The position numbers were made by a program, and so were the translations under genes. From assembly GCA_963668025.2 (NCBI GenBank), contig CAXXTH010000010.1, positions 1,360,456 to 1,424,455 of the forward strand: 64,000 nucleotides of DNA, given 5' to 3'. Shown one piece after another: positions 2,012-58,913 of the stretch. Source of the stretch: Candidatus Hydrogenedentota bacterium. Its GTDB lineage: Bacteria > Hydrogenedentota > Hydrogenedentia > Hydrogenedentales > SLHB01. The notes below the pieces were generated by a model that did no database searches, had not been told where the DNA came from, and saw nothing but the letters and a program-made list of their open reading frames with translations. Each line of letters begins with the position of its first letter. The stretch's first letter is position 1.

Positions 2012-2995
2012 TTATTCCAGCGCTTCCGGGTTCACGCAATTCGGCGGCGTATCGCCGTTGAAACGGGCGATGATGTTTTGGGCGGCCATTTCGGCCATGC
2101 GGTTGCGGGTGTCGTGGGTGGCGCTGCCGAGGTGGGGGATGAGGACGGCGTTTGGACACCCAAGCAGGCGTTCATGCACTTCCGGCTCTCGCTCGAAGAC
2201 ATCCAAGCCCGCTGCGAATATCTCGCCCGCATCGAGGGCCTTCGCGAGCGCTTCCTCATCCACCACGGGCCCGCGCGCCGTGTTCACGAGGCAGGCAGTG
2301 CGTTTCATGGCGCGGAATTCCGCCGCGCCGAAGGCGTGGGTGGTTTCGGGGGTGAGGGGGCAATGGATGGAGATGAAATCGGATTCCGCTAGGAGCGTGG
2401 TTTTATCGGCGAACGCCGCGCCTAAGTCTTGCTCTGTCTCCGGCGTGAGCCGGTTGCGGCTTGTGTAGAGGACGCGCATGTTGAAGCCTTTAGCGCGGCG
2501 CGCCACCGCCTGCCCGATGCGGCCCATGCCGAATATGCCTAGTGTTTTACCGTGGATATCCACGCCTAGAAAGAGTTGCGGGCCCCAGCCGCTCCATTGG
2601 CTTGCGCGCAGGAAGCGTTCCGATTCGCCCAAGCGCCGTGCGGCGGCCATCAGGAGCGCCCAGGCCAGATCAGCCGTCGATTCCGTCAGGACTCCTGGGG
2701 TGTTGCTCACGGCGATCCTCCGCGCCGATGCCTCGGCGATGTCGATGTTATTATACCCCACCGCGTAATTGGCGATGATCTTGAGCGGCCTGCCCGCCGC
2801 ATCCATGACGGCGGCGTCGATGCGGTCGGTCAGCAACGGAAGCAACGCGGCCGCGTCTTGGACGAATTCCAGCAACTCATCTGGTTCGATAGGCCTGTCA
2901 TGGGGGAAGACGTGGACGTTCTCCACGCCGAATGCGGCGCGTAGCAATTGGAGTCCTATTTCCGGGATAGCGCGTGTCACGACGATCTTAGGCAT
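2012..2995 (-). CDS. D-2-hydroxyacid dehydrogenase (glyoxylate reductase / D-glycerate or 2-ketogluconate reductase family)
   Basis: AVGYNNID, NTPGVLTE, GMGRIG NAD motif, NTARG, LDVFEREP, PHLGSAT. Confidence 0.93.
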   Translation of the reverse strand: MPKIVVTRAIPEIGLQLLRAAFGVENVHVFPHDRPIEPDELLEFVQDAAALLPLLTDRIDAAVMDAAGRPLKIIANYAVGYNNIDIAEASARRIAVSNTPGVLTESTADLAWALLMAAARRLGESERFLRASQWSGWGPQLFLGVDIHGKTLGIFGMGRIGQAVARRAKGFNMRVLYTSRNRLTPETEQDLGAAFADKTTLLAESDFISIHCPLTPETTHAFGAAEFRAMKRTACLVNTARGPVVDEEALAKALDAGEIFAAGLDVFEREPEVHERLLGCPNAVLIPHLGSATHDTRNRMAEMAAQNIIARFNGDTPPNCVNPEALE

Positions 2996-3006
2996 GCTAT
3001 TCCACC

Positions 3007-3080
3007 CGCGCGAAGCGCGACTCGAAAGTTTCTAGGAAGGGGCCAGGGGAAACCCTCTTTCCAAAGAAGGCCTCCCCTGA
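3007..3080. repeat. GC-rich intergenic hairpins (REP-like or terminator-like)
   Basis: cgcgcgaagcgcg palindrome plus the imperfect stem caggggaaaccctcttt...aaagaaggcctcccctg between gnd and the dehydrogenase. Confidence 0.4.
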
Positions 3081-3089
3081 ATCATAATA

Positions 3090-4541
3090 TCACACTACGT
3101 AGGTCGAGGCCGAGGTCATGCCGCCGCGTCCGGTCCAATTGGTATGGAAGAACTCGCCGCGCGGCTTATCGACGCGCTCATAGGTGTGCGCGCCGAAGTA
3201 GTCGCGCTGGGCCTGGAGCAGGTTGGCGGGCAAGCGCTCCGCGCGATACCCATCGAAATAGGCCAGCGCGGTGCTAAGGGCCGGGGCCGGGATGCCCAGC
3301 TTCACCGCCGTGGTGATGACGCGCCGCCAGGCGGATTGGGCCTTCTCGATGGCGTCCTTGAAGAACGGATCGAGCAGCAGATTCACGAGGCCGGGATCTT
3401 TGTCGAAGGCCTCCTTGATTTTACCCAGGAAGGCCGACCGGATAATGCAGCCGCCGCGCCACATGAGGGCGATGCCGCCGTAGTTCAGGTTCCAGCCGTA
3501 TTCCGCCGCCGCCGAGCGCATGAGCTGGTAGCCTTGGGCATAGGACACGATCTTCGAGGCGTAAAGCGCCTGGCGCAGATCGTTGACGAAGGCCTTCTTG
3601 TCGCCATCGAACGCACAGGTTTGGCCTTTAATGAGTTTCGATGCGGCCACGCGCTCGTCCTTGATGGCCGATAGGCAGCGTGCGAATACGGCTTCGCCGA
3701 TAAGGGTCAACGGCTGGCCTTGGTCGAGGGCGGCGATGGCGGTCCACTTGCCCGTGCCCTTCTGGCCGGCCGTGTCGAGGATAAGGTCCACGACCTCGTT
3801 GCCCTCTTCGTCTTTATATCCCAAGATGTCGCGGGTGATCTCGATGAGGTACGAGTCGAGTTCGCCCTTGTTCCATTCCGCGAATACTTCATGCATTTCA
3901 GCGTTCGACATGCCGAGTCCTTGGCTCATGAGATGGTAGGTCTCACAGATCATCTGCATGTCGCCGTACTCGATGCCATTATGCACCATCTTGACGAAGT
4001 GGCCCGCGCCGCCCTCGCCGACCCAGTCGCAACAGGGGGCGCCGTCGGCGGTCTTGGACGCGATGGCTTGGAAGATGGGCTTCACATGCTCCCATGCGGC
4101 AGGCGAACCGCCGGGCATGATGGACGGCCCGAGCAGCGCGCCTTCCTCGCCGCCCGACACGCCAGTGCCGATGTACAGGAAGCCCTTGCTCTCGACATAT
4201 TGCGCACGGCGGATGGTGTCCGGGAAATGCGAATTGCCGCCGTCAATGATGATGTCGCCTGGTTCGAGGTGGGGGAGAAGCAGTTCGATGAAGTCGTCCA
4301 CCGCCTTACCCGCCTTCACCAGCATCATGACCTTGCGCGGCGTCTTCAAGTTGGCGCACAGCTCTTCGATGCTGTGGCAGCCCAGGATGTTTTTGCCTTT
4401 GCCCCGGCCATTCACGAAATCATCCACTTTCGATACGGTGCGGTTAAAGACCGCCACGGAAAAGCCTTTGCTTTCCGCATTGAGCACTAGATTTTCGCCC
4501 ATGACCGCCAAGCCGATGAGCCCCATGTCCATTTTCGCCAT
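3090..4541 (-). CDS. gndA: 6-phosphogluconate dehydrogenase, decarboxylating (NADP+)
   Basis: [51 protein letters not shown]. Confidence 0.98.
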
Positions 4542-4571
4542 TGGTTAGCTTCTCCTTCTATGTTGATTGTG

Positions 4572-4892
4572 TTATGAATGATTAAGTGTCATATTCGCTT
4601 CTTGCAGCACTTCATAGTACTTTTCAATAATCGCCTGGAATTCCTTTGCCAGCTTGTCCCAGTCCAGCACGTCCACCATGAACGGCAGATTGGACTCCGC
4701 AAACGCGTCCTTCAGTTCCTCTATGCGCCGCCAATCCACCGGCTCCGGCGTGACGAGCGCCAGATCCAAGTCGCTGTAAGGCCGCGCATTGCCCCGTACC
4801 CGCGAACCGAAGGCCCTCACCTCCGCTTCGGGGATGTGCGACGCGAGGAGCCGCTTCACTTCCGCTAGTTCTTCACTAGATAAGTCAATCAT
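4572..4892 (-). CDS. Minimal nucleotidyltransferase (MntA-like antitoxin), copy 1
   Basis: FGSRVRG...SDLDL motif, about 106 aa, start overlaps the end of the upstream HEPN gene. Confidence 0.9.
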   Translation of the reverse strand: MIDLSSEELAEVKRLLASHIPEAEVRAFGSRVRGNARPYSDLDLALVTPEPVDWRRIEELKDAFAESNLPFMVDVLDWDKLAKEFQAIIEKYYEVLQEANMTLNHS

Positions 4893-5304
4893 TCCGTTTT
4901 TCAAGTTCCGCTAGAAGCGCTTGTGCATGAGGCAAAAACTGCTTTGCGTGCTCTAGCGCCACTTCCGCTTGCGCTTCGTCATATGTGTGGGACGTTAAGC
5001 TTCGTGCGTCGCCAAAAGCAAACCATGGCTCGGGATTGGCGATAAGGCCTTGCCTGGCCGACATACGGAACAACTCCTTGCGCGTCCGGGGAAACTCGGC
5101 TTCCGCCAGCGAACCATTCTCGCGCAGCCACCGCTGCATGAACTTCCAGCACTGCTCGTACGCGATCTCGAAGTGCTGGATGATGCCTGCTCGAATCGCT
5201 TCCCGCGCGTCAGCCTCATAGGAGTCACCACGCGTATCCAGTACGTGCAATGAACGATCCAGCGCTTCGATGGTTTTCCGCAAGCTTGTCAGTTCCAGCC
5301 GCAT
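4885..5304 (-). CDS. HEPN-family nucleotidyltransferase substrate-binding protein (HI0074-like), copy 1
   Basis: IQHFEIAYEQCWK and DARSLTSHTY (R-x4-H-x-Y) motifs; adjacent to MNT. Confidence 0.88.
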   Translation of the reverse strand: MRLELTSLRKTIEALDRSLHVLDTRGDSYEADAREAIRAGIIQHFEIAYEQCWKFMQRWLRENGSLAEAEFPRTRKELFRMSARQGLIANPEPWFAFGDARSLTSHTYDEAQAEVALEHAKQFLPHAQALLAELEKRND

Positions 5305-5329
5305 GGTTCACCTCAGTTCATGTCTCACT

Positions 5330-6616
5330 CTATTTCCGCAATGCCTGCAACGTGTACGCCGGGAGTTTTTTATCCGCGAAGATCGGTTTGAACCGCGTGA
5401 AGCGGTGGCGGCCGGCATTGATCGGCGCGCTGATCCAGTCTTCGCCGATGAGCGGTTTTGCATAGCGCACGAAATCATCCGTCACATCGATCTTGCTTGG
5501 CGCAATCCACGACTTCGGGAAAGAACGTTCCGAATTGGCGACTTGTTCGAGAGGCACTTTGTCATACCGCACATTATAAATCACGCCCGGCTCGCGCAAG
5601 ATGGTGGACATCCAGCCATTCTCGCCGGATTGGGCGATCAAGGCGGCCTTCTGGCCTACTTTATATGCTTCATCCAGGTCCACGATGGATGTATACAGCG
5701 CCATGGCGCGTTGATCCGTACCCGAGACTTGTCCGCGCGCCGCACCAGGCACCGGCAGTTTCTTTTCATTCAACAAGTTGACGATTTTCTGCGCGGCGGT
5801 CAGTTTCGTGGCTCCGAAATGGGTGTGGCCGAAGCTATCCTTGATATCGCCTAATTCGCCTATGTCGAAGCCCTCGCTTACGACGAGCATGCACCGGCCA
5901 TCGCGCTTGAGCTGGTCGCTCACGTTGTCGCATAACTCTTCCGCTGTCACGCCCGATTCGGCCATATAGATCTGAAGCGGCATCTCCCGTTTCGGGTCCG
6001 CCAGACGCGCCGCCGCAGGAATGAAGCCGATTTTGCGGCCCATGGCCTGCATGACCAGAACGGGATCGTTGGGGCAAGAACCTGCATTTTCTTCGTTGGC
6101 GGCCTGGACCACGCCCATCCAATACCGCGCCACGCTGCCGTAGCCCGGCGTATGGTCGATGAGCTTGAATTCCGAGTCGCCCACGTCGTTGTCGATGGTC
6201 TTCGGAACGCCGACGCCGATGAGGTCGAGGCCTTGTTCGTGGGCGAGGTTGGCGATTTTATGGGCGGTGTCCATCGAGTCATTGCCGCCGTTATAGAAGA
6301 AATACCCGATGTTATGGGCCTTGAACACCTCGATGACCCGCTGGAAGTCCTCTTGCTGGTCTTTTTTCAACTTGTACCGGCAAGTGCCGATAGAGCCTGC
6401 GGCGGGGGTGTAACGCAGCAGGGCGACTTCTTCTTCATCTTGAGCAGACAGGTCGAGTAATTCTTCCTTCAAGACGCCCTCAATGCCGTGCCATCCCGCG
6501 TAGAGGGTTCCAAAGGTCTCAGGGAACATCTTGCACGCGTCGATGACGCCGCGAAGCGAGCTGTTGATGACGGGGCTAGGCCCGCCAGACTGTGCGACAA
6601 TGACATTCTTTGGCAT
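5330..6616 (-). CDS. pfp: PfkA-family phosphotransferase, PPi-type signature, divergent acceptor site
   Basis: QSGGPSPVIN, GGNDS (Asp at the donor-specificity position), PKTIDND, MGR; AGGAGG RBS before Met at 6616. Confidence 0.85.
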   Translation of the reverse strand: MPKNVIVAQSGGPSPVINSSLRGVIDACKMFPETFGTLYAGWHGIEGVLKEELLDLSAQDEEEVALLRYTPAAGSIGTCRYKLKKDQQEDFQRVIEVFKAHNIGYFFYNGGNDSMDTAHKIANLAHEQGLDLIGVGVPKTIDNDVGDSEFKLIDHTPGYGSVARYWMGVVQAANEENAGSCPNDPVLVMQAMGRKIGFIPAAARLADPKREMPLQIYMAESGVTAEELCDNVSDQLKRDGRCMLVVSEGFDIGELGDIKDSFGHTHFGATKLTAAQKIVNLLNEKKLPVPGAARGQVSGTDQRAMALYTSIVDLDEAYKVGQKAALIAQSGENGWMSTILREPGVIYNVRYDKVPLEQVANSERSFPKSWIAPSKIDVTDDFVRYAKPLIGEDWISAPINAGRHRFTRFKPIFADKKLPAYTLQALRK

Positions 6617-7085
6617 GATGCAATTGTTCCTCCTGTATAGTGCCATTATATCCAAATAGAATGAACCTAAATAATCGGCTTACGCCGATTCAATATGAAT
6701 TCCATAGAGTAGCATAGCCGCAACTAAAGGCCCGGATTGTAGGCCACGAAATACCCTAAATACACGAAAACATTCAATGGAATACTTTGTGACTCTGGCC
6801 ACGCCGTTGTTAATTGCTCATCAGTGTAATCGGTGTCATCAGTGGATCAAAATGTCTTCAAATGCTTGCACAGGAAATCTTTGCAAGAAAAGGTTTTTTG
6901 TAGATAGCAGCCCAACACTGGCGGCGCATGGCGGCATTGAAATACGTGTAGCATGCGCTTTTCTTGTTTAACCAGCTTCTATTAGTTAATAATTTCATAA
7001 AAATCGATTAAATAACAATCATAAATTAACTTATTATACAGCTAGAGTCAACGCTCTAACATTATCTAGGGCCTATTATAAGACA

Positions 7086-8393
7086 TTATGACATACGATT
7101 TCTATAAAAAGGCTTCGGTGCGGGATTGCCTTCTTTTAACCGATAGAGCACTTCTCCCGCGTGTGGCACGAGGAGAAGCCCTTCCTCTTCCTTGTCTTTC
7201 CAGTCATCGGGATGGATGGATGCCGGAGCACGATACCCCAGGTTAATGGCGCGGCATTCCTCTTCGGGTATTCCCGTGGCCAGCGTGACCTGAATCCGGC
7301 ATTTTTCCACGCCGTTTTCCATAGTCCCGATGCCGCGCACGTGGGTCGAATGGGCCAGGATGCCGCCGGGTATGTCGCGAAATCTATCGAGTTGGGACAA
7401 GAAATAGTCGCGGGTATGATAACCGATGCGCTTGATCAGTTTGCCATGAGTCACGCTGATTTCACGAATATGCGGCGCACAAATAATCAGTTCGCCGCCA
7501 TCGGCCACCACGGGCTCGAGCTTGTACATGCATTTGCCCGCCACCCAGATCTCGTCATACATGGCGGGGGCCATGGCGAGCACGCTGGTGTAGGGGCGGT
7601 CTTTGTAGACGACATGCGTCTGTGCCGATAGGTCCGCTGCGGCGTCCCAGGCGTCTTCCGGCGTGCCGTAAAAAATGCCTTTGCAATCCTTGCCCATCAC
7701 ATTCAGGCAAAAGCAGCGTTTCTCGATGGGAATCATGGAGGCGGCTAGGTTGATGACTTCCCGCACGGGCGTGTACTTTGTGCCATTGATGACGGGATTC
7801 GAGATCAGCGCGCCCAACCAGTGAAATAGGTTCAGTATTTCCTCGCCCGCGATGCCGGGGAAAAAATACTTGTTGCCGCCGCTGAAGCCTACGACCTCGT
7901 GGGGAAACACGGGCCCTACAATGCACAGCAAATCGTAATCAAAGATCCGCTTGTTGATCAGCACATCGGCGCGCTGCCGCAGCAATCCGCCGCTGATGTG
8001 TTCGATCTCTTCCTCAGTGACCGTTCCGATATGCCGCAGCATATCCGCATTCTGCCAATCATGATTAAAAATGCCGACATCCGCGTATTTGGTTGCGCGC
8101 TCTTCGGACGATATGCCCACGAGGTGGTTGATGGCCTCATCCGTCATGGGCGGATGTGTGCCCAAGGCCACGAGGCAATCCATTTTCGCCACGCGCCCAT
8201 GGACCGCATCAAACAGCGCTCGAAACATAGCCGCCATGGGCATGCTGCGCGTGCTGTCGGGAATGATGAAGAGGACGCGCTTGCCATTGATGGATTCGTT
8301 TCCCAGCGTTTCTTGCACGAAAGCATGCAAGCCGGACTCTGATAGGAAGCCTTGCGATGCGATCAGTTGCTTAGTTGAGGATGTGGTTTGCAT
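7086..8393 (-). CDS. LarA-family (DUF2088) nickel-pincer hydroxyacid racemase/epimerase, probable mannonate/gluconate epimerase
   Basis: PDSTR, LGTH, PHEVVGFSGGNK, FH motifs; GGAGGAG RBS favours a start at 8393/8396 over 8414; specificity inferred from context. Confidence 0.85.
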   Translation of the reverse strand: MQTTSSTKQLIASQGFLSESGLHAFVQETLGNESINGKRVLFIIPDSTRSMPMAAMFRALFDAVHGRVAKMDCLVALGTHPPMTDEAINHLVGISSEERATKYADVGIFNHDWQNADMLRHIGTVTEEEIEHISGGLLRQRADVLINKRIFDYDLLCIVGPVFPHEVVGFSGGNKYFFPGIAGEEILNLFHWLGALISNPVINGTKYTPVREVINLAASMIPIEKRCFCLNVMGKDCKGIFYGTPEDAWDAAADLSAQTHVVYKDRPYTSVLAMAPAMYDEIWVAGKCMYKLEPVVADGGELIICAPHIREISVTHGKLIKRIGYHTRDYFLSQLDRFRDIPGGILAHSTHVRGIGTMENGVEKCRIQVTLATGIPEEECRAINLGYRAPASIHPDDWKDKEEEGLLLVPHAGEVLYRLKEGNPAPKPFYRNRMS

Positions 8394-8432
8394 CAACTCG
8401 GGTATCTCCTCCATGTGAAAGGCTCGGAATAC

Positions 8433-8578
8433 TCACCACTAAGTCACAAAGACACAAGGAGTTGTGAGAGTTCATTCATCTGCCTCACTCTTTATTTGTG
8501 CAATAATGGTTAAATATTCATATACATACATGATGAAGTCCTTGAGAACCTCTTTGTGTCTTCGTGTCTTGGTGGTGA
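8433..8578. repeat. Pair of ~27-bp imperfect inverted repeats around an AT-rich spacer
   Basis: tcaccactaagtcacaaagacacaagg (8433-8459) versus the reverse complement of 8552-8578, tcaccaccaagacacgaagacacaaag. Confidence 0.75.
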
Positions 8579-8579
8579 A

Positions 8580-9746
8580 TTATCCGGATACTTCCGCAGA
8601 TCTATCGGCAATGCTATATCCCAATCCCGCCAGCGCCCTCTCGATCTCGCTATTCGCAGGCTCCACGAGCGCGCGCGTATTAAAAAACTCGCAGCGCTGG
8701 GGATATTCTTTCCGCAAGCGATCAAAGTATGCGCCGCGCTGTTCCTCGGGCTGCCCAATAATGCCGCGCATGGCCGCATCGTCTTCCACTATATCATAAA
8801 CCGGTTTTACTGCTTGCCGCAGGGCGTCCATAAAGGGAAGTGAACCATCCACGCGCACTTCGGGGCACGCTGGCGCGGGGAGCAAAGGCGCGGGATTCCA
8901 AGTGGGGGGGAGGCCCAGGAATTGGCAGGCGGCCTCGTAAATCTGCCGCGTGCCGTTCACCTTGCCATCGAAGGAGTAGCCCGCGATGTGGGGCGTGCCG
9001 ATGAACACGCGCTTGAGCAGAGCGGCGTTTATACTCGGTTCGCCTTCCCATACATCGAGCACGCAGGCCCGCAAGTGGCCATCATCCAGGGCGTGTATAA
9101 TCGCTTTGCCGTCCGCCACGGGGCCGCGTGAACTGTTCATGAGAATCGCGCCTGGCTTCATTGCTTGAATAAACGATTCGTCCGCCAAATGATAGGTCGC
9201 GTCCGGCCCTTCTTTCTGAATAGGCACATGGAGCGTGACGATATCGCATCCCAGGATCTCTTCAATAGGCCGGTATTTGGTATTGCCAGTCTGGCGCTCG
9301 AGCGGCGGATCGTTGAGGACGCACTTCATGCCTAGCGCAGTGGCCATGGCCAGCACCCGTTTTCCCACATTGCCCACGCCTACGATGCCCAGCGTCATGC
9401 CGTGCAAATCGAATCCGAATCGTTCGCTCAGCGCCAGCAAGGCGCACGCGATATATTGGCCTACGCTGTTCGCGTTGCAGCCCGGCGCGCTCGAGAAAGC
9501 GATGCCGTGTTGTGCGAGATACGCCTTGTCGATGTGGTCTTCTCCAATGGTGGCCGTGGCCACGAAACGGACCTTGGAGCCATCCAAGAGCGCCGCGTTC
9601 ACCTTGGTGATCGAGCGGACCAGCAGTAGTTCCGCGTCGTGGACGGTCTCTGCGGCCATCTTGCGGCCGTGCGCCGTACACACTTCGCCCAGTGGCGCAA
9701 ACGCCTCCCGGACATAGGGGATGTTTTCATCGGCGATAATCAGCAT
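8580..9746 (-). CDS. pdxB: 4-phosphoerythronate dehydrogenase (PdxB-like)
   Basis: ADENIP, LLVRSITKV, ATIGEDHID, APGCNANSV, GVGNVG, PHIAGYS, FDRLRKEYP; AAGGAG RBS before Met at 9746. Confidence 0.92.
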   Translation of the reverse strand: MLIIADENIPYVREAFAPLGEVCTAHGRKMAAETVHDAELLLVRSITKVNAALLDGSKVRFVATATIGEDHIDKAYLAQHGIAFSSAPGCNANSVGQYIACALLALSERFGFDLHGMTLGIVGVGNVGKRVLAMATALGMKCVLNDPPLERQTGNTKYRPIEEILGCDIVTLHVPIQKEGPDATYHLADESFIQAMKPGAILMNSSRGPVADGKAIIHALDDGHLRACVLDVWEGEPSINAALLKRVFIGTPHIAGYSFDGKVNGTRQIYEAACQFLGLPPTWNPAPLLPAPACPEVRVDGSLPFMDALRQAVKPVYDIVEDDAAMRGIIGQPEEQRGAYFDRLRKEYPQRCEFFNTRALVEPANSEIERALAGLGYSIADRSAEVSG

Positions 9747-9763
9747 GGTAGCTCCTTTTTTGG

Positions 9764-9948
9764 ACCACGAATGGACACGAATTTGCACGAATAAAGAAGT
9801 GCATTTCTGGTGCATTAATCAAACTTACAGACAAAATGCTTATGTGTATATAATTATATTTATAGTACATTATTAAATTATTTACTGATGTATTTTCATT
9901 GATTCATATATGTAAAATAATCGTGATCATTGGTGTTTATTCCTGGTT
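9764..9948. repeat. Pair of degenerate inverted repeats built of cacgaat-type units around a very AT-rich spacer
   Basis: accacgaatggacacgaatttgcacga (from 9764) versus the reverse complement of 9921-9948, aaccaggaataaacaccaatgatcacga. Confidence 0.6.
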
Positions 9949-10985
9949 CCTCTCGTTTCTTCATCAATGATTGCTTTCGTGAGCGAGATAGCGTCCAGCG
10001 CATATGGGCTGTCGCTGGTCTCCTGGCACAAGATGATTTCATCAACGCCTTGCCGCACGGCAAGGGCGACATCATTGAGTTCAGCCCGGTTGGGCGTTCC
10101 GGTGGACGCATAGTGTTCGAGGAATTGCGTGGCCACGGCCACGGGCTTGCCTGCTAATTGGGCAAGTTTTACGATCTCCTCCTGAATGCGCGGCAGCCGG
10201 TGGGGCGGCACGAATATGCCCAAGTCGCCGCGCCCCAGCAGAACGCCATCCGCTTCGGCGATGATGGCGCGCGCGTTTTCCACGGCGTAAGCGGTTTCGA
10301 TTTTAGCGATGATGCGCGGTGTCTCCTCCGGCCATATAGCGGTGATGTCGCGGCGCGCTTCGGCTATCTGCGCGGCGGATACGGCCAGAGATAGCAGGAT
10401 GCCGCTGGGTTTTATGCGTGCGGCGGCGAAACAGGCGAGGAGCTTTTGGTCGTCCTTGCGAAGCAATTCAAAATGGACGCCGCTATCGGGGAAGCTGCAC
10501 CCGTTGTTTTCTTGAAGCGCTGAAGAGGCGGTATGGCATCTTGCCGATATCGTATTCGCCGTGTGGGAAATCACACTGAAGATATTACGCCCATCACGGA
10601 ACATCAGCCGATGTCCGGGCTCGAGCATGGAAGCCCATTGCGGCAAGCCAGGCAGTGGAATTTCACCCTCTATTTGGGTGGTTTCCGCATCCACAAGCTG
10701 GACGATTTCGCCAGGATGGAACCGGCGGGCAAGCATGCGGCCAATGCGCGGGCGCGTGGCGGGCAGATCAAGATATAGCCCGCATTTGGTTTCAAGCCCA
10801 GCAGAGGCTAGTATTTCTTGCTTGGCCAGAATAATATTTCGAGCGTCCATCAGATGATCGCGGCCGGACAGCCCTAAGGCCATGCGGAATCCGTTTGCAC
10901 CGCACGCCATGGCTTCCCTGAGTTTTTGTAAGGAATCCATGGTTCGTCCGGCGCTGGCGATGATCCGGGGGCGCTGTTGTATCAA
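9927..10985 (-). CDS. Divergent pyruvate-kinase-fold protein lacking the C-terminal allosteric domain
   Basis: IIAKIET, GRGDLG, VATQFL, PNRAELNDV, LCQET motifs; 352 aa; TTG start with AAGGAG RBS inside the end of the upstream small ORF. Confidence 0.82.
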   Translation of the reverse strand: MIQQRPRIIASAGRTMDSLQKLREAMACGANGFRMALGLSGRDHLMDARNIILAKQEILASAGLETKCGLYLDLPATRPRIGRMLARRFHPGEIVQLVDAETTQIEGEIPLPGLPQWASMLEPGHRLMFRDGRNIFSVISHTANTISARCHTASSALQENNGCSFPDSGVHFELLRKDDQKLLACFAAARIKPSGILLSLAVSAAQIAEARRDITAIWPEETPRIIAKIETAYAVENARAIIAEADGVLLGRGDLGIFVPPHRLPRIQEEIVKLAQLAGKPVAVATQFLEHYASTGTPNRAELNDVALAVRQGVDEIILCQETSDSPYALDAISLTKAIIDEETRGTRNKHQ

Positions 10986-10990
10986 GGTTT

Positions 10991-11131
10991 TTACGACTCC
11001 TTCGCCAACTGCGGGAAGAGCGTCACCACAAAATCATATACCGGTTCTTCGAAGGTTTCGCACCACCAGGTGGGCGCGCAGCCGCATGGCATGGGGCATA
11101 ACTGGCTGGTGGCGGCTTTTATGTGCTTCAT
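10991..11131 (-). CDS. Unannotated 46-aa peptide MKHIKAATSQLCPMPCGCAPTWWCETFEEPVYDFVVTLFPQLAKES
   Basis: Hand-translated, below the ORF track cutoff; GAGGAG RBS 7 nt before ATG; fills the gap and stops 5 nt before the PK-like start. Confidence 0.65.
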   Translation of the reverse strand: MKHIKAATSQLCPMPCGCAPTWWCETFEEPVYDFVVTLFPQLAKES

Positions 11132-11150
11132 GGCCTGTCTCCTCAGTTGT

Positions 11151-11193
11151 AATAGGGGAGAAGCCATCCCACATCGAGTGTTTCTCCCCTATT
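11151..11193. promoter_or_regulatory. Stem-loop with a perfect 12-bp stem upstream of the peptide gene
   Basis: aataggggagaa (11151-11162) and ttctcccctatt (11182-11193); no long U-tract. Confidence 0.5.
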
Positions 11194-11213
11194 TGTTCCA
11201 CCAATAGGAATGG

Positions 11214-12113
11214 TTAATGGCCGTTCTTTTTCCACGGCGGCAGCTCGGGCAGATACGTGTCGAATTCGCGGATCAATTCCGCTTCATATTCGCCCGCGAA
11301 TGTGCCCGCGAAGAACCGGTCGAGGCCTTCTTCATACAGACGTTTCCACGACTTGTCTTCATCGCCCGGAAGGATGGGGAAGAAGAGTGCGCCATTGCCC
11401 CGCGCTGCTTTCATATCGCCCGGCGCGTCGCCAATCATGAGCATGTTCATTTTTTCGTAGCGCCCTTCCGAGGCGTAGCCGATATGCTGCGTCTTTGTGC
11501 CCATTTCCTGCCCCGCGATGGCGAAGACATACTCGGCGAGGCCTTGCTCTTCCCATTCGCGCACGAGGGCCTCCGTGGGCGTCTGTGAACAAACCAGCAT
11601 GTCCGCCTTATCTTGAGCTTTTTGCAGGCATTCACGCACATAAGGGAACGGCGGAAGGCCTTTGTCCACGATATCCGCCACCGATACATTCACGGCTTTG
11701 CTCCAGCGCAAGGTTTGGTGCATGACCGGATCATCGTGTTCTTTGCAATATGCCTCGAGGGCGGGATTGCCCAGTTTGGATTCCTTTTCGACCCATGCCC
11801 GCAGCGAGGGCACATCAGGGGCCTTAATGCCGCGCTCTTGCACTTTGTCCCAATCGTTCAGCAGGTCGAAGGTCATCAGGATCGCTGGAAAGCGGTTGCA
11901 GCCGCGCCATTTCGAGTAGAGGTTCACGAACTCCGCCGCCGCGCGCGCATATTTCGACACGGTTTGGAGCTCCCAATGCTTGATGATGTTCGGGATGAAA
12001 CATTCCTTGTGCTTGATCTCCATCGTATCGAAGGCGCAGCCGTCCGAATCAATGGCGATTAAGAATTGGTGTTTGGGCTGGTGGTTCTTCAGAACTGCTA
12101 CGGGGTCGCTCAT
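11214..12113 (-). CDS. HAD-superfamily hydrolase
   Basis: Motif I IDSDG, motif II SQT, motif IV GDAPGD. Confidence 0.9.
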   Translation of the reverse strand: MSDPVAVLKNHQPKHQFLIAIDSDGCAFDTMEIKHKECFIPNIIKHWELQTVSKYARAAAEFVNLYSKWRGCNRFPAILMTFDLLNDWDKVQERGIKAPDVPSLRAWVEKESKLGNPALEAYCKEHDDPVMHQTLRWSKAVNVSVADIVDKGLPPFPYVRECLQKAQDKADMLVCSQTPTEALVREWEEQGLAEYVFAIAGQEMGTKTQHIGYASEGRYEKMNMLMIGDAPGDMKAARGNGALFFPILPGDEDKSWKRLYEEGLDRFFAGTFAGEYEAELIREFDTYLPELPPWKKNGH

Positions 12114-12162
12114 GATAGTTTCTTCCCTTTCTTTTTTTGATGAAATTAAGAATGCGCTTCTG

Positions 12163-12567
12163 TCATAACTGTTTATACATTTCTAACAGCCAGTCCCTCA
12201 TGACGGGGGTATAGGATGAAATGCGTTTCGCGAGTTCTTCAGCGAGCAATTCATTATAAGTATGCACGGCAAGATTCCGATCATCCGCCATCTGCATAGC
12301 CAGATCTTGTGAAGAGCGGTTAATAAGGCCATTTTGCAGGCATGCCCTCACGATTTCTTTGGGAGAGGCGAATGCTTGCCCATACGCTTGGCGCAATACG
12401 GTTTGCGCTGCTTTCCAAATTGCTTCGAACGTAAAGATAAACCGAAGAATGGCGGCATCCCGGGAACGATTATCGTCATCGTTGGGGATAGGCTCAAGAG
12501 GCAGAGCCCTTTCGAGCGCCTCTAAAGCTGTTTTTGCGGTATCTAGCCGCTTCACCATTATTTCCAT
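12163..12567 (-). CDS. HEPN-family nucleotidyltransferase substrate-binding protein (HepT/HI0074-like), copy 2
   Basis: RDAAILRFIFTFEAIWK and DDRNLAVHTY. Confidence 0.9.
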   Translation of the reverse strand: MEIMVKRLDTAKTALEALERALPLEPIPNDDDNRSRDAAILRFIFTFEAIWKAAQTVLRQAYGQAFASPKEIVRACLQNGLINRSSQDLAMQMADDRNLAVHTYNELLAEELAKRISSYTPVMRDWLLEMYKQL

Positions 12568-12848
12568 CGAATGCCTTCCTTGATGACGGCGTCGCGAAAA
12601 TCCGCACTCGTGCTCGAAAGGTCTATCACATCCGCGAAATACGGGATGTCGCTTTCTTCTAATGCGGAGCGGATGGCTGGCATCACGCTCATAGGCATAG
12701 GGCCCTTCGGCAGCACCGCGATATCAATATCGCTTGCGCGATCATCTTCTCCCCGGGCCGACGAGCCGAACAGATACGCCTCGGCGTCATGGCCTTCCAG
12801 CGCCGATAGCACCAGGGCCTTGGCCTTTTCGATATACTTGGAATCCAT
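12558..12848 (-). CDS. Minimal nucleotidyltransferase (MntA-like antitoxin), copy 2
   Basis: LFGSSARG...SDIDI motif; 96 aa from MDSKY; overlaps the HEPN start. Confidence 0.9.
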   Translation of the reverse strand: MDSKYIEKAKALVLSALEGHDAEAYLFGSSARGEDDRASDIDIAVLPKGPMPMSVMPAIRSALEESDIPYFADVIDLSSTSADFRDAVIKEGIRWK

Positions 12849-12856
12849 GGCGCGAA

Positions 12857-13687
12857 TTATACGCCCGAAAACGCGCTGAATCCGCCGTCGATGGGCACCA
12901 CGATGCCCGTGACGAATCGCGAGGCGTCTGACGCCAGCCAAATGGCTACGCCGATCAAGTCTTCCGGTTTCCCGAATTCAGCCATGGGCGTATGGGCGAT
13001 GATGGTTTTTCCTCGCGGCGTCAGCTCTCCGGTCTTCTCATCGGTCAGCAAGAACCGGTTTTGATCCGTCAGGAAGAACCCCGGCGCGATGGCGTTCACC
13101 CGCAGCTTGGTGCTGTATTCCTGCGCCAAGTGTACGGCGAGCCATTGAGTGAAGTTGCTGACGGCTGCTTTCGCCGCACTGTACCCCGGTATGCGTGTCA
13201 GCGGGCGCAGGGCGTTCATGGATGATATATTAATGATGCTCCCGCCTTCGGCCTGGTTTTTCATGCGGCGGCCAAAAACTTGGGAAGGCACGATAACGCC
13301 TCCGGTCAAGTTGAGATCGATGACTTTCTGAATCGCTTCGGCGGGGAGATCAAAGAAAGACTGCTCCGGAGAGGTCGTCACGCCCTTCATGTTGCCGCCC
13401 ACGCAATTGAACAGGCTGTCTACTTTGCCGAAATCGTGGTAAATGGACTCGCAGCAAGCTTCAATGGACGTTTTTTCAAAGACATTCATCCCATAGGCGG
13501 CGGCTTTGCCCCCATCCGCCGTAATGGCGGCAGCCTTCGCCTTGGCGTTGTCAAGGGCTACATCAGCGATAGCCACGCTTGCGCCTGCGTGTGCAAGGCC
13601 GCGAGCGATGGCGCCGCCGAGTACGCCGCCGCCGCCAGTGACGACGACTACCTTGCCAGTTAGATCAAAACATGAAGTATTTGCCAT
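12857..13687 (-). CDS. uxuB: SDR oxidoreductase, D-mannonate oxidoreductase / fructuronate reductase-like
   Basis: TGGGGVLG, SSMNALRPLTRIPGYSAAKAAVSNFTQWLAVH, APGFFLTDQNR, IDGGFSAFSGV, typical of SDR-type UxuB. Confidence 0.85.
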   Translation of the reverse strand: MANTSCFDLTGKVVVVTGGGGVLGGAIARGLAHAGASVAIADVALDNAKAKAAAITADGGKAAAYGMNVFEKTSIEACCESIYHDFGKVDSLFNCVGGNMKGVTTSPEQSFFDLPAEAIQKVIDLNLTGGVIVPSQVFGRRMKNQAEGGSIINISSMNALRPLTRIPGYSAAKAAVSNFTQWLAVHLAQEYSTKLRVNAIAPGFFLTDQNRFLLTDEKTGELTPRGKTIIAHTPMAEFGKPEDLIGVAIWLASDASRFVTGIVVPIDGGFSAFSGV

Positions 13688-14284: not shown

Positions 14285-16933
14285 ATGAACCACATGGAAC
14301 AAGAACGATTGGCGGAAGCCGGAGAGCGTGTGAAGCATTGGCGGCGCTGGGGCCCATATCTTTCCGAACGCCAATGGGGCACGGTGCGTGAGGATTATTC
14401 GCCCGATGGCAATCCCTGGCAGTATTTGCCCTATGACAAAGCCCCCTTTTACGCCTATCGGTGGGGGGAAGATGGCATTGCCGGAGTGAGTGACAATCAC
14501 CAGCGGCTATGTTTCGCCATTGCCCTCTGGAATGGGCAGGATGCTTTGCTCAAGGAACGCCTTTTCGGGCTCGATAATGCGGAAGGCAATCACGGCGAAG
14601 ATGTAAAGGAATATTATTGGCATTTGGACTGCACGCCCACGCACTCGTATATGCGCTATCGCTATCGGTATCCCCAGCAAGCATTTCCATACCAGCAACT
14701 GCGCGAAGAAAACGGCCGGCGAGGACGGCGCCAGCCGGAATATGAATTGGCGGATACGGGTATCTTCGATGAAAACCGCTATTTTGATGTGGATGTGGAA
14801 TATGCAAAAGCCGATGCGAATGATCTGTTGATCCGTATTACGGTGAAGAATGCCGGGCCAGAGGCCGCCGTGCTGCATGTGTTGCCCTCCTTGTGGTTCC
14901 GCAATTCCTGGCGCTGGCGTCAAAACGTCCAAGCGCCCATCATTGAAAAGGCGGGGCTTAGCGGCGTACGTGCGGAACACCCGGAATTTGGCGTAGCTTT
15001 TCTCGATGCGTCGTGTGGGCCGCGATGGATTTTTACGGGAAACGAGACGAATCATGAACGCCTGTATGGCGCGCCCAATCCATGCAAATACGTGAAAGAT
15101 GGTTTTCACCGGCTGCTTATTGATGGCGCTGAGGAGGCGGTGTCTGAGGATGCCGGTACGAAGTGTGCGGCGTGGTATGCGTGGAAATTAGCGCCGGATG
15201 AGCAGCGAATGGTCACGCTGCGTTTGCGTGAATATGATGCGGAAGCGCCCTTCGAAGGGCCGGAATTCACCCATGTGTTTGATGTGCGCCGGGCGGAATC
15301 GGAGGCGTTCTATGACAGCCTTATGCCGCCATGCGCAACGAAAGAACGCCGCGCTATTGCCCGCCAGGCTTTTGATGGCATGTTGTGGTCTAAACAGTGG
15401 TACCATTTTATCGTCGAGCAATGGCTTGCGGGCGATCCCACCATGCCGCTTCCCGACCCGAAACGCGCCCATATCCGCAATGAAGAATGGCTGCATTTGT
15501 ATAATGATGATGTGTTGTCCATGCCTGATAAATGGGAGTTTCCCTGGTTTGCGGTATGGGATACCGCTTTCCACTCCATTACGCTTGCGGAAATTGACCC
15601 AGAATATGCGAAAAACCAGCTTCGGGTGTTTACGCGGGAATGGTATATGCACCCGAATGGGCAGCTTCCCGCATATGAATGGGATTTCAGCGATGTGAAC
15701 CCCCCCGTCCATGCCTGGGCGACCTGGCGTGTATATGAGATGGAACGCCAGCGCACCGGCAAAGGCGATGCGCGTTTTCTCGAGAGTGTGTTCCACAAGC
15801 TGCTGATGAATTTTACCTGGTGGGTGAACCGCAAGGATGCCGATGGCGATAACATCTTCCAAGGCGGATTTTTGGGGATGGATAATATTGGTGTCTTCGA
15901 CTGGAGCGCCCGCATGCCAATCGAGGGGCGCATCGAGCAAAGCGACTGCACTAGCTGGATGGCTATGTATTGTTTGAATATGCTTCGGATTGCTTGGGAG
16001 CTTTCCAAAACAGATCCCGTTTATGAAGATATCGCTTCCAAATTCTTCGAGCATTTTCTATATATCGCCAGCGCAATCTACAACATAGAAGGCACGGGGG
16101 CGTCGCTTTGGGACGAGAAAGACGGATTTTTCTACGATCAAATTCAATGGCCTGATGGCCGCCGCGAATCATTGCGCATCCGTTCCATGGTTGGGCTTAT
16201 TCCTGTGCTTGCGATCGAGATAGTGGAGCATGGCCAAATGAAGCATCTGCCAGGATTCGAACGGCGCATGAACTGGTTCTATGACAATCGAGGCGACTTA
16301 ACCAAGAACATTTCGTGCGTGTTTGGCCCTGGGCATGAGGGCCGGTGCCTTCTCTCGCTGATGAACCAAGAGCAGCTCAGGCGCGTATTGGCGCTGATGT
16401 TGGATGAAAATGAATTTTTGAGCGAGTACGGCATTCGTTCGTTATCCAAAGCGCATGATGCGGCGCCTTATGTCTTTGAACTCGATCACTATCGAAGCAT
16501 CGTACATTATTTGCCGGGTGAATCGGATAGCACTCTTTTTGGAGGAAACTCGAATTGGAGAGGCCCGGTCTGGTTTCCAATCAACTTTCTGATCATCGAT
16601 GCTCTCCGGCGGTATCATACGTTCTGGGGCGATAGTTTCCAGGTGGAGTTCCCTACGGGTTCAGGCAATCTCATGCACTTGGGCCAAGTGGCGAATGCCT
16701 TAGCGGACCGGTTAATTGCGCTCTTCGAGCGCCGGGAAGGCCGGCGGCCTGTTTCCGGCGAGCGCGCGCTGTTCCAGGAAGATCCTGCCTGGCGGGATCT
16801 CCCCGCGTTTTTCGAATATTTCAACGGCGACACGGGCGAAGGCCTTGGCGCCAGCCACCAAACAGGCTGGACGGGGCTCGTGGCCAACTTAATCATCGAG
16901 CGCGAGCGGCAGCGGCAGCCGATCAGCTCATGA
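14285..16933 (+). CDS. GH63 / MGH1-like glycoside hydrolase
   Basis: WGPYLSERQWGTVREDYS, SMPDKWEFPWF, GGNSNWRGPVW, EYFNGDTGEGLGASHQTGWTG. Confidence 0.93.
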   Translation: MNHMEQERLAEAGERVKHWRRWGPYLSERQWGTVREDYSPDGNPWQYLPYDKAPFYAYRWGEDGIAGVSDNHQRLCFAIALWNGQDALLKERLFGLDNAEGNHGEDVKEYYWHLDCTPTHSYMRYRYRYPQQAFPYQQLREENGRRGRRQPEYELADTGIFDENRYFDVDVEYAKADANDLLIRITVKNAGPEAAVLHVLPSLWFRNSWRWRQNVQAPIIEKAGLSGVRAEHPEFGVAFLDASCGPRWIFTGNETNHERLYGAPNPCKYVKDGFHRLLIDGAEEAVSEDAGTKCAAWYAWKLAPDEQRMVTLRLREYDAEAPFEGPEFTHVFDVRRAESEAFYDSLMPPCATKERRAIARQAFDGMLWSKQWYHFIVEQWLAGDPTMPLPDPKRAHIRNEEWLHLYNDDVLSMPDKWEFPWFAVWDTAFHSITLAEIDPEYAKNQLRVFTREWYMHPNGQLPAYEWDFSDVNPPVHAWATWRVYEMERQRTGKGDARFLESVFHKLLMNFTWWVNRKDADGDNIFQGGFLGMDNIGVFDWSARMPIEGRIEQSDCTSWMAMYCLNMLRIAWELSKTDPVYEDIASKFFEHFLYIASAIYNIEGTGASLWDEKDGFFYDQIQWPDGRRESLRIRSMVGLIPVLAIEIVEHGQMKHLPGFERRMNWFYDNRGDLTKNISCVFGPGHEGRCLLSLMNQEQLRRVLALMLDENEFLSEYGIRSLSKAHDAAPYVFELDHYRSIVHYLPGESDSTLFGGNSNWRGPVWFPINFLIIDALRRYHTFWGDSFQVEFPTGSGNLMHLGQVANALADRLIALFERREGRRPVSGERALFQEDPAWRDLPAFFEYFNGDTGEGLGASHQTGWTGLVANLIIERERQRQPISS

Positions 16934-22600: not shown

Positions 22601-22862
22601 TGGTCTTTCAACGACGCTCTTGGTGGATGAAAACGATCAATTCATACGCTATATCTTTCGAGCGCAATTGCCATCGCCTACCGTCCGTTTGATGATAACT
22701 CCTGGAAAAGCGCTTACGCTCGCGCATATCGAAGCGTACCGCCACACGCCTCAACACGTGAAGCTCCATCGCGGAATCCTTGCGGGAAAACGGCATAAAG
22801 GCGGAGTCACTTTTGATTTACTGGAAAATCAACCTGGCGTGGCGGTTGAGGCTCGCCGTTGA
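19605..22862 (+). CDS. Large secreted hypothetical protein, possible clan GH-A-like glycoside hydrolase with accessory beta domains
   Basis: GAGGT RBS, signal peptide (LPAFA), EPNHEHE and TLGEYN segments. Confidence 0.7.
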   Translation: MAHKIWMLLACSCLVVLPAFAKDEAMPAYQECAAMASWDVLYDFANHCKEADARETEIFINAYKSAQGIERPGFLLHPYTAQKDTLASLKFPPVALSGFAEGERPILHFYITIADGFDPAQTPTFDGCGFIIHINGEEVFHQIHAQQEWLEFTVDLEPWRGQEVQITFQADALENSNYDWAFWGAPQILIQGRQRPPRQGPKSSMLSYERLASEIQPERIVKHYQDDRTQTIIAVMDKDLDLPALLWAARDETKPEVPLAPRMVAGEGADPENHTIVRVLNEYGIADVQFLAYPVEIKGGVQVCALRAQGEDRIVAAPLADESMREIRVFNVWGGLVNAFTPSDFVRTPMSLATARLEHGGAAQVIAVASRNVLNQRVKLFCYTADGAIKREYTLSEMTGPLELTAMAHEETHIGIYDIGAGVFIEWDLATGQEIKRVPILDATPETRVYPSAFGDELWATYPEKVFSTIKRYRNGQAETVNVGERENTFWFQWPEAISLDASSEAQAPRYIQYSTYRHIRTEYFSDFLKNPTFNTTPADWLADETLNKHARELAQSYNEPLPAVWDICFSHRTHKEAFTKWLDQKEPETGVLQYSMLTRENNPEEYVEFEQFFFALTTYAFGLPELDRLYVMPLRRTLQRLAAAYRDNPEHMAALEPNHEHEIAVQGDGSKGDYNLWMIRGFYHYLAALYGNDPAWLAAKFGFEKGQYFDAPRGWGRGEWDAYDSSNPFLREWEFYNRYVVNRRIAQTFREALLAGFPPELIRSHQIPDRYALGGLEAFSSVQSRYTPIDYTISAGVGYGFTRYGVFYTNPNNCIMGAYSSGFDNITLGEYNALTPDPQVAYEQLRYIFDHGGATVDCIQWPGSHDEGFNAAMITALRRLMEEDPPRSVAAGGTGPMRAFIDGGRAFNIVQIGAGGEHTGLLKSITSDGDWEGTVYVTPFHAHVDISSVPFEREGEKWLSAPIQALDAAGQIELMVDVNSRKKSQIQIQVLQENQVLPGLSTTLLVDENDQFIRYIFRAQLPSPTVRLMITPGKALTLAHIEAYRHTPQHVKLHRGILAGKRHKGGVTFDLLENQPGVAVEARR

Positions 22863-37176: not shown

Positions 37177-37767
37177 ATGGTCCAGCAAGAGTTGCATGTC
37201 TCCAGAATGGAGAACCTGTGGCATATGCAGGCAGAACCGGCGCATTTTTCGTGGCCCAGCAATGACAGTGAGTTCCGGACGCTGTTGGAAGCCATGAGCA
37301 GCCGACTTGTATGGCATGCCTTTCGCAGGCTTCGCTCACACAGCGATGCGGAAGATGTGGTTCAAGATGTGTTTTTGCGGGTCTACTCCTCTCTGGGCAA
37401 AGCCCCGGCTGTAAAAAGCATGCAAGCGTATTTGTATCGTATGACAACGAACGCTTGCATTGACTTCCTGCGGAAGCGCGACCGGCGGGGCGTTCCTATG
37501 CAACTACATTTGGCGCACGAGGTCACTGATGATCGGCCCACGCCACGAGAGATCATGCTCGCGCTTGAAGAGACCGAGCGTCTCGAAGGCTGGCTCCGCC
37601 GGATTCCCCGCCGCCAAGCTGAGATCATTCGTCTTCACCTGTACGATGAACTGTGTTTTTCCGATGCGGCGGATGTTGTGGGGTGTTCGGCCGGCACCGC
37701 CAAGTCGCGATTCCGCAACGGGATGCACAAACTCAAGCGCCTGATGGACAAGGAGAGCCCCTCATGA
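37177..37767 (+). CDS. ECF RNA polymerase sigma factor
   Basis: DAEDVVQDVF, NACIDFLRKR, region 4 GTAKSR; AGGAGG RBS. Confidence 0.92.
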   Translation: MVQQELHVSRMENLWHMQAEPAHFSWPSNDSEFRTLLEAMSSRLVWHAFRRLRSHSDAEDVVQDVFLRVYSSLGKAPAVKSMQAYLYRMTTNACIDFLRKRDRRGVPMQLHLAHEVTDDRPTPREIMLALEETERLEGWLRRIPRRQAEIIRLHLYDELCFSDAADVVGCSAGTAKSRFRNGMHKLKRLMDKESPS

Positions 37768-58861: not shown

Positions 58862-58913
58862 AGATTTTAAGCGGATCCGCCTGGTTGAAGTAAAAAGCAA
58901 GGAGAGAGGCATA

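Follow-up and report, generated by a model that had tools for sequence, protein, structure and literature searches.

A predicted nickel-pincer epimerase, PFK-like kinase and HAD-like partner form a candidate hexonate route to the pentose phosphate pathway in Hydrogenedentota

Introduction

A route that leads from hexuronates to the pentose phosphate pathway through an epimerase has already been published in outline. The Thermotoga maritima hexuronate locus, a UxaR-regulated operon with the order aldH-pelB-gnd-uxaR-uxaE-uxaD-gntE-gntK (PMC3750489), combines fructuronate reductase, GntE, gluconate kinase and Gnd, as stated in the initial annotation of the DNA studied here. GntE2 of T. maritima and GntE1 of C. 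glutamicum epimerise D-mannonate to D-gluconate, and their Km values for free mannonate are high, at 17 mM and 120 mM, respectively (PMC7583248). A specificity signature for GntE has been described as E, V/S, A and H at the positions of F175, F176, W358 and T359 in LarA1 (PMC11770544). Lactobacillus suebicus has a mannonate kinase/6-phosphomannonate 2-epimerase route, known from its activities and not from its genes. Here, we analysed a window of 64,000 nucleotides (the whole stretch of DNA under study) from a Candidatus Hydrogenedentota bacterium, contig CAXXTH010000010.1, positions 1,360,456 to 1,424,455; the source genome comprises 6.15 Mb on 24 contigs and is 93.75% complete. The best protein matches carry the name Candidatus Hydrogenedentes. 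Within a minus-strand run of genes in this window, we tentatively propose that five genes, encoding a short-chain dehydrogenase/reductase (SDR), a LarA homologue, a phosphofructokinase (PFK)-like protein, a haloacid dehalogenase (HAD)-like protein (HADl) and Gnd, constitute one functional block for an epimerase-first hexonate route to the pentose phosphate pathway.

By analogy, the block would correspond to the uxaD-gntE-gntK-gnd branch of the T. maritima operon. Both have gnd, an SDR mannonate oxidoreductase and a GntE-type LarA homologue in adjacency, and loci related to ours add UxaE, UxaC and a transporter. The block differs from the operon in its kinase, which is of the PfkA family with a pyrophosphate (PPi)-type signature instead of GntK, with no GntK found in the window or the genome, and in its obligate HAD-like partner. 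In addition, UxaC, UxaE and UxuA were not found in this genome, and pdxB, a pyruvate-kinase (PK)-barrel gene and toxin-antitoxin pairs are interleaved with the block. With L. suebicus the block shares a predicted dehydratase-free path from mannonate to 6-phosphogluconate and on to Gnd, but the candidate kinases of that organism are GntK-like, whereas that of the block is PFK-like.

Results

A predicted GntE-like epimerase with its cofactor genes

The LarA homologue has a Lar_N domain (PF09861; 83.5 bits, cut-off 23.3). Among solved structures, it is closest to T. maritima GntE2 (4NAR; E 9e-65, 222.6 bits, residues 45-429), whereas lactate racemase structures reach only 2.8e-07 (about 1e-7). 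NF052594, a model for putative hexonate epimerases, ranks first among the six NCBIfam models of the LarA family, but its 181.8 bits do not reach the cut-off of 500. We identified the motifs PHEVVGFSGGNK, FHWLGA, GKCMYK and AHSTHV, and the segments DSTR, GTH, PHE, GGNK, FHW and GKCMYK match residues listed in PMC7583248. By-eye mapping to 4NAR, 2YJG and 5HUQ showed that the catalytic and nickel-pincer nucleotide (NPN)-binding equivalents of LarA D72, R75, H108, H174, K184, H200 and K298 are kept. The GntE signature is also present, as H-E-V after the catalytic His and as A-H in ILAHS. NPN-binding and catalytic residues, the E-V/S...A-H signature and full-length similarity are features that the protein has in common with GntE2/LarAH20 (4NAR) and GntE1/LarAH19 of C. 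glutamicum; unlike GntE2, it has Gly-Gly in place of Lys347-Asn348 in the alpha14 loop. On the strength of the 4NAR similarity and the signature, we infer that it is a GntE-like hexonate 2-epimerase and not a lactate or malate racemase, in line with the initial annotation.

A search of the genome for larB, larC and larE recovered all three genes. Two LarB proteins (304 and 285.8 bits; cut-off 175), two LarC proteins (475 and 352 bits) and one LarE (287.8 bits; cut-off 150) are encoded, and the NPN cofactor can therefore be made.

To place the epimerase among its relatives, we built a quick tree from 67 LarA sequences no shorter than 400 aa together with a paralogue from the same genome. This resolved three well-supported clades: an FCB-type clade, a Hydrogenedentota clade found with the PFK-like protein, and a Verrucomicrobiota/Armatimonadota clade. 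The last of these is the sister of the Hydrogenedentota clade and has GntK, FGGY or no kinase nearby. Within the FCB-type clade, PFK-like and KdgK-like contexts are interleaved among close relatives. Four basal orthologues come from Planctomycetota/Brocadiia-labelled or unlabelled records (L029, L032, L059 and L068) and carry Arg at position 350. In L029, L032 and L068, where no SDR was detected, LarA adjoins a PdxB-like gene, so that this adjacency recurs outside Hydrogenedentota.

The genome holds three further Lar_N proteins. One of these, a second GntE-like LarA paralogue with 46% identity (L175 9083-10315; G000:C18:45082-46314), has as neighbours a RhaT-like transporter, an SDR, a zinc alcohol dehydrogenase, an aldehyde dehydrogenase, an E1 dehydrogenase fusion and an SMP-30 gluconolactonase. 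Sugars may be oxidised here by a distinct pathway with a nickel epimerase of its own.

Oxidoreductase and 6-phosphogluconate dehydrogenase

The SDR belongs to the D-mannonate oxidoreductase subfamily NF006132 (351.9 bits; cut-off 281), and its third-best match among solved structures is 1VL8, T. maritima TM0441 (E 1.8e-34). It also matches gluconate 5-dehydrogenase models. Gnd exceeds the TIGR00873 cut-off of 426.7 with 765.6 bits and is the single copy found in the genome, represented by one tblastn locus.

The kinase slot holds a PFK-like protein and a HAD-like partner

The PFK-like protein is assigned to the PPi-PFK subfamily NF010675/PRK14072 (366.1 bits; cut-off 273) and matches the short PPi-PFKs 3K2Q and 3HNO with E values of about 1e-72. 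With these it shares the fold, the length, the catalytic motifs and the PPi-type residues: GGNDS and PKTIDND are present, the protein retains the catalytic TIDND, MGR and SEG, and we observed Asp104 and Lys124 (E. coli numbering), which we take to be the signature of pyrophosphate use. Unlike 3K2Q and 3HNO, it has a 5-residue insertion after TIDND and two substitutions at residues that we assume to bind substrate. Of the E. coli residues R162, R243, H249 and R252, presumably ligands of the 6-phosphate of fructose-6-phosphate, the R243 and R252 equivalents are kept, whereas R162 is replaced by Pro and H/Y249 by Thr in 17 of 17 aligned orthologues (read by eye; MAFFT left this stretch unaligned with canonical PFK). 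The R162 equivalent is Lys in both 3K2Q and 3HNO. These substitutions at the 6-phosphate ligands are suggestive only. The PFK-like protein of the block is the third PFK-family member of the genome, in addition to a canonical 323-aa protein and another PPi-PFK-like one.

Downstream of LarA, related loci show four arrangements that follow lineage: the PFK-like protein with HADl, a KdgK-like PfkB kinase with a HAD protein, GntK, or FGGY. The KdgK-like kinase, which has an IolC-domain match, is followed either by HADl or by a second HAD family (c11). The GntK found in this slot is bona fide (TIGR01313, 181.5 bits; cut-off 113.75). Since GntK, FGGY or KdgK-like proteins occupy the same slot and the PFK-like protein co-occurs with LarA in Calditrichota (see below), the earlier suggestion that a non-orthologous enzyme fills the kinase step is well supported.

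HADl scores 21 bits against PF13419 (HAD_2), which does not reach the cut-off of 23.8, and its sequence gave no match in the PDB at E values up to 1. All four HAD motifs are nevertheless present, with DSDG (motif I) and GDAxxD (motif IV) invariant in 21 orthologues; D22, D24, K207, D229 and D233 are invariant residues and the cap is strongly basic. An AlphaFold2 model (pLDDT 92.4) has the Rossmannoid core of the superfamily, and a Foldseek search with it placed HADl among C1-capped HADs at E values of about 1e-5, with beta-phosphoglucomutase as the best match (TM 0.52/0.68) and phosphoglycolate phosphatases also found. HADl and the second HAD family have no homology detectable by hhalign (probability 1.1%), and both accompany PFK-like or KdgK-like kinases, never GntK or FGGY. 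The modelled fold and this distribution suggest that HADl is a phosphatase or phosphomutase and an obligate partner of the PFK-like kinase.

The gene set recurs across phyla

In order to assess conservation, we scanned species genomes with LarA as the seed and retained 80 loci out of 582 relatives. Block genes were searched in these 80 loci by tblastn (E <=1e-10, at least half the query length), and 1016 crude open reading frames (ORFs) from the related loci and the window were clustered. The SDR was present in 48 of the 80 loci (28 at >=58% identity and 20 at 39-49%), gnd in 38, HADl and the PFK-like gene in 32 each, and PdxB in 30. The block of Fidelibacterota, Calditrichota, KSB1 and Verrucomicrobiota sits among UxaE (16 loci), UxaC (9), a TRAP transporter, LacI and sometimes eda, usually in the order uxaE-SDR-gnd-LarA-kinase-HAD, in agreement with the T. 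maritima operon. The reverse test took HADl as the seed: of 43 metagenome loci of at least 6 kb, 27 had the SDR, 25 gnd, 22 a member of the LarA family, 18 the PFK-like gene and 11 UxaE, and about 8 had none of these. Such recurrence in several phyla puts the arrangement far outside what chance would produce. The co-occurrence of SDR, HAD, LarA, Pfk and gnd that was initially put forward is thus borne out in other genomes, and neither of the two findings that would have spoken against the initial proposal, a LarA homologue of the lactate or malate racemase type or an unconserved gene set, was made.

Calditrichota provided a second phylum in which the PFK-like protein and HADl strictly co-occur. 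Both were found in the same 7 of 86 genomes and are absent from the other 79; LarA was found in those 7 and in two more (G179 and G184), and the PFK-like gene always adjoins LarA. Gnd exceeds its cut-off in 36 of the 86 genomes, and the PFK-like protein therefore follows LarA and not gnd; on the same counts we rejected gnd as its true partner. The two genomes that have SDR-gnd-LarA without the PFK-like/HAD pair show signs of decay of the block. LarA carries two in-frame stop codons in G184 (L187, G184:C5), and a stop interrupts gnd in G179 (L186, G179:C10). No kinase directly adjoins LarA in either genome, and a GHMP kinase lies ~4 kb away in G184. These lesions may reflect block decay or assembly error.

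Among 135 Hydrogenedentota genomes, the PFK-like protein was found in 116 and LarA in 112. Both are present in 105 and neither in 12, while 11 have only the PFK-like protein and 7 only LarA; in several of these 18 mismatches, the gene is a fragment at the end of a contig. The block is thus a near-universal core of the phylum, and it is mostly uncoupled from UxaC. Most genomes of one family, f7 (G037-G048), are without LarA and the PFK-like protein. UxaC was found in 8 of 14 and UxuA in 0, and therefore yet another hexuronate route would operate there.

Hexuronate entry is not supported in this genome

The window is without uxuA, kdgK, eda and a gntK or FGGY kinase on domain and profile matches, as initially annotated. 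For uxuA and gntK this absence extends to the genome: no match to UxaC or UxuA was found in the 93.75% complete assembly, and tblastn with locus-derived UxaE, UxaC and P-loop GntK queries found nothing. Matches to FGGY in the genome have only about 25% identity. A KdgK-like gene adjoins eda on contig C9, and Zwf and two transaldolase-family genes are present.

UxaC exceeds its cut-off in 39 of 135 Hydrogenedentota, including 23 of 23 genomes in family f3; strong matches occur in 4 of 53 genomes of the window's own family, and UxuA occurs in 5 of 135. The initial annotation had fructuronate enter the route in this organism. This was not supported, as UxaC, UxaE and UxuA were not found and the block is far commoner than UxaC in the phylum; the feed in this genome is not the UxaC/UxaE isomerase route. 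Nearly all Hydrogenedentota genomes have the block but few have UxaC or UxuA, which suggests that mannonate or a keto-uronate comes from a source not yet recognised in this phylum.

As a candidate divergent uronate isomerase we considered an amidohydrolase of about 430 aa with a partial UxaC match (40 bits) in a relative (L190 2603-3898). It was set aside, as its context of an ABC transporter, GFO/IDH/MocA and ThuA does not indicate uronates. A homologue with 32% identity is encoded in the genome at C10:619986-621203, and both proteins may be divergent sugar isomerases.

Layout of the run and passenger genes

All seven genes named in the initial annotation were confirmed on the minus strand at 2012-13687: SDR, HAD, PdxB-like, LarA, PfkA-family, gnd and 2-hydroxyacid dehydrogenase genes are co-directional (Table 1). 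The names were right, but the PK-barrel gene, two toxin-antitoxin pairs and an AT-rich gap had been overlooked. Since these interrupt the run, it is co-directional yet not a single tight operon. The non-coding gap between LarA and the probable start of the PFK-like gene measures 470 bp. AGGAGG precedes the ATG at 6616 and the MPKN start of PFK-like orthologues fits this ATG, which makes 6616, and not 6655, the probable true start. An Rfam search gave no match, and promoter-like and terminator-like sites were not commoner than in shuffles.

Table 1. Features of the minus-strand run, in window coordinates.
Feature	Coordinates	Strand	Evidence
SDR oxidoreductase, probable fructuronate/mannonate oxidoreductase (UxaD/UxuB-SDR counterpart)	12857..13687	-	NF006132
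MntA-like/HepT-like toxin-antitoxin pair 2, insertion outside pathway	12163..12941	-	PF18765, PF01909, PF08780, PF01934
HAD-like protein (HADl), 299 aa, predicted phosphatase or phosphomutase	11214..12113	-	weak PF13419
Pyruvate-kinase barrel-only protein, 352 aa, lineage-specific passenger	9927..10985	-	PF00224
PdxB (4-phosphoerythronate dehydrogenase), probably housekeeping	8580..9815	-	NF001309 and DUF3410
GntE-like LarA-family nickel-pincer 2-hydroxyacid (hexonate) 2-epimerase, predicted	7086..8414	-	PF09861, 4NAR similarity
AT-rich non-coding gap, probable internal promoter region	6617..7085	-	no ORF with relatives
PFK-like (PfkA-family, PPi-type signature) predicted sugar-acid kinase	5330..6616 (ORF call to 6655)	-	NF010675/PRK14072
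HepT-like/MntA-like toxin-antitoxin pair 1, insertion	4572..5304	-	PF08780 106 bits; PF01909, PF18765
gnd, decarboxylating 6-phosphogluconate dehydrogenase	3090..4541	-	TIGR00873
Glyoxylate/hydroxypyruvate-reductase-like D-2-hydroxyacid dehydrogenase, probably peripheral	2012..2995	-	NF009714, 6BII

Several genes of the run are probably passengers, namely pdxB, the PK-barrel gene, the glyoxylate-reductase-like gene and both toxin-antitoxin pairs. PdxB passes the NF001309 cut-off (450.4 bits; cut-off 434), has the DUF3410 dimerisation domain (PF11890) and adjoins LarA in 30 of 80 loci, mainly in Hydrogenedentota. PdxJ and PdxA are encoded in the genome, PdxS was not found there, and this is the only PdxB; the protein is therefore most simply a housekeeping vitamin B6 enzyme, and its placement in the pathway by the initial annotation was not sustained. 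For the same reasons a role as a phospho-hexonate oxidiser was set aside. The terminal 2-hydroxyacid dehydrogenase, likewise counted in the pathway at first, looks like a glyoxylate/hydroxypyruvate reductase: it scores 384.2 bits against NF009714, under the cut-off of 455, matches the glyoxylate reductase 6BII with E 4e-105, and has orthologues (>=55% identity) in only 7 of 80 loci. The PK-barrel protein covers the full barrel profile of PF00224 (118.8 bits) and is without the C-terminal domain. Its gene occurs in only 2 of 80 loci and has a paralogue at G000:C17:1123684-1124676. The two pairs of MntA-like nucleotidyltransferase and HepT-like protein (type VII toxin-antitoxin) both lie inside the run and have no counterpart in the 80 related loci; pair 2 also matches NF047752 and NF047751, both under cut-off.

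The remaining window content is unrelated and includes gyrA/gyrB, an ABC exporter, a chemotaxis cluster and a GH38 gene. An 882-aa GH63/mannosylglycerate-hydrolase-like protein is encoded on the plus strand at 14285-16933, divergent from the SDR, and this adjacency was seen in 0 of 80 related loci. Three ORFs, at 19605-22862, 37653-39116 and 58731-60386 (1085, 487 and 551 aa), gave no match to Pfam under the thresholds applied.

Discussion

Family memberships, cofactor genes, gene linkage and phyletic pattern, all of which were directly observed, are consistent with a four-step route. As its family suggests, the SDR would reduce a 5-keto-hexonate (D-fructuronate) to D-mannonate. The nickel-pincer epimerase would then invert C2 to give D-gluconate, in keeping with its nearest characterised relative and its signature residues. 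The PFK-like protein, probably using pyrophosphate, would phosphorylate C6 to 6-phosphogluconate, a step suggested by its position and co-occurrence only, and Gnd, whose family membership is clear, would yield ribulose-5-phosphate. Our guess for HADl is a phosphatase that clears wrongly phosphorylated hexonate, for example 6-phosphomannonate. We lean towards this epimerase-first order, with reserve, because the clade beside true GntK has identical LarA active-site motifs.

Several observations weigh against this interpretation. We infer the substrate of every enzyme in the block, and the LarA homologue lies far under the hexonate-epimerase equivalog cut-off (181.8 versus 500). The PFK-like protein passes the NCBI PPi-PFK subfamily cut-off and retains TIDND, MGR and SEG. 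Fructuronate is without an evident source here, because UxaC, UxaE and UxuA were not found in the genome and UxaC is rare in the phylum, with 39 of 135 genomes compared to about 112-116 for the block. An epimerase-first order leaves the need for a HAD protein unexplained. The KdgK-like kinase of Fidelibacterota loci may be a plain KdgK, as eda occurs in some of the same loci. Within the window, the 470-bp gap and two toxin-antitoxin insertions interrupt the run. Finally, genomes of one phylum are kin, so that counts overstate independence, and central metabolism may account for part of the clustering, as gnd (single copy) and pdxB are housekeeping genes.

A different order of steps is a serious, if less likely, alternative. 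Here the PFK-like or KdgK-like protein would first phosphorylate D-mannonate, or even D-fructuronate on the primary hydroxyl beside its keto group, LarA would be a putative 6-phosphomannonate 2-epimerase and the HAD protein would control the pool of the phospho-intermediate. PfkA-type and KdgK/IolC-type kinases usually target the primary hydroxyl of a keto-sugar or keto-sugar acid, and the IolC-domain match of the KdgK-like protein fits this habit. Two unrelated HAD families are found only beside these kinases, which is easier to explain by a novel phospho-intermediate. In extracts of L. suebicus, mannonate and ATP yield 6-phosphomannonate, which is converted to 6-phosphogluconate and back, and the organism expresses a GntE homologue (PMC6978723). 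The high Km of GntE1 and GntE2 for free mannonate points in the same direction. So does position 350 of LarA, which adjoins a residue described as facing the substrate side chain (PMC7583248): 37 of 40 PFK/KdgK-like clade sequences have Gly there, compared with Trp in all 23 sequences of the GntK/FGGY clade and Arg in the 4 basal ones. However, the Gly/Trp difference may represent a single evolutionary change on the tree, and T. maritima GntE2 has Lys at this position in our own alignment reading, which leaves no simple charge logic. The remaining LarA active-site motifs are identical in the clade beside bona fide GntK, and the GntK family reportedly does not use mannonate (Cohen 1950, cited in PMC6978723). 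For Hydrogenedentota as a whole, it is conceivable, if less likely than not, that a phosphorylated kinase-first route, PPi- or ATP-dependent, is the near-universal core pathway and is fed by a source other than UxaC, with LarA as the missing 6-phosphomannonate 2-epimerase and the HAD partner as a phosphatase dedicated to the new phospho-intermediate.

It is improbable that the PFK-like protein is a genuine PPi-phosphofructokinase, acting on fructose-6-phosphate or sedoheptulose-7-phosphate beside gnd, with the hexonate kinase encoded elsewhere or unneeded. Such a role would agree with the PRK14072 assignment, with an about 40%-level similarity to the structural-genomics PPi-PFKs 3K2Q and 3HNO, and with the Asp104/Lys124 signature and retained R243/R252 equivalents, as mapped by eye. 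The protein is also near-universal in Hydrogenedentota whatever the UxaC status, and its gene clusters with the housekeeping genes gnd and pdxB. In Calditrichota, however, it is confined to 7 of 86 genomes, always beside LarA and HADl, compared to 36 for gnd, which is not a glycolytic-type distribution; unlike PRK14072 PPi-PFKs, it is strictly linked to LarA and HADl and not to glycolysis. Its slot is taken elsewhere by other sugar-acid kinases, a canonical PFK, a second PPi-PFK-like protein and transaldolase-family genes are already present in the genome, and the R162 and H/Y249 equivalents, as mapped by eye, are Pro and Thr in the 17 orthologues. A sedoheptulose-7-phosphate kinase bypass for a missing transaldolase was rejected, as two transaldolase-family genes are present.

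It is very improbable that in this phylum the block serves another sugar acid (mannuronate-derived mannonate, 5-ketogluconate/idonate, or keto-acids derived from inositol or amino-uronates) or consists of loosely related central-metabolism neighbours: the absence of UxaC, UxaE and UxuA here, and of UxaC and UxuA in most of the phylum, and the gluconate 5-dehydrogenase matches of the SDR speak for it, but the five genes occur together across phyla and in hexuronate loci, the SDR lies above the mannonate oxidoreductase subfamily cut-off, and a different feed would alter the input and not the logic of the block.

Returning to the epimerase-first route, the initial annotation of a dehydratase-independent hexuronate variant stands in part: the GntE-like LarA, the conserved set and the substitute kinase are retained, while hexuronate entry, PdxB and the terminal dehydrogenase are not. 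The limited set of literature searched contained no description of a PfkA-family sugar-acid (hexonate) kinase that has a HAD partner. Most likely, the block channels six-carbon sugar acids into the pentose phosphate pathway via a nickel-cofactor epimerase. If this is true, the textbook PFK family would gain a new activity, exerted on a sugar acid by an enzyme that has an obligate HAD partner. Any pipeline naming the PFK-like protein a PPi-phosphofructokinase would then be in error, and glycolysis reconstructions of several uncultured phyla would be affected.

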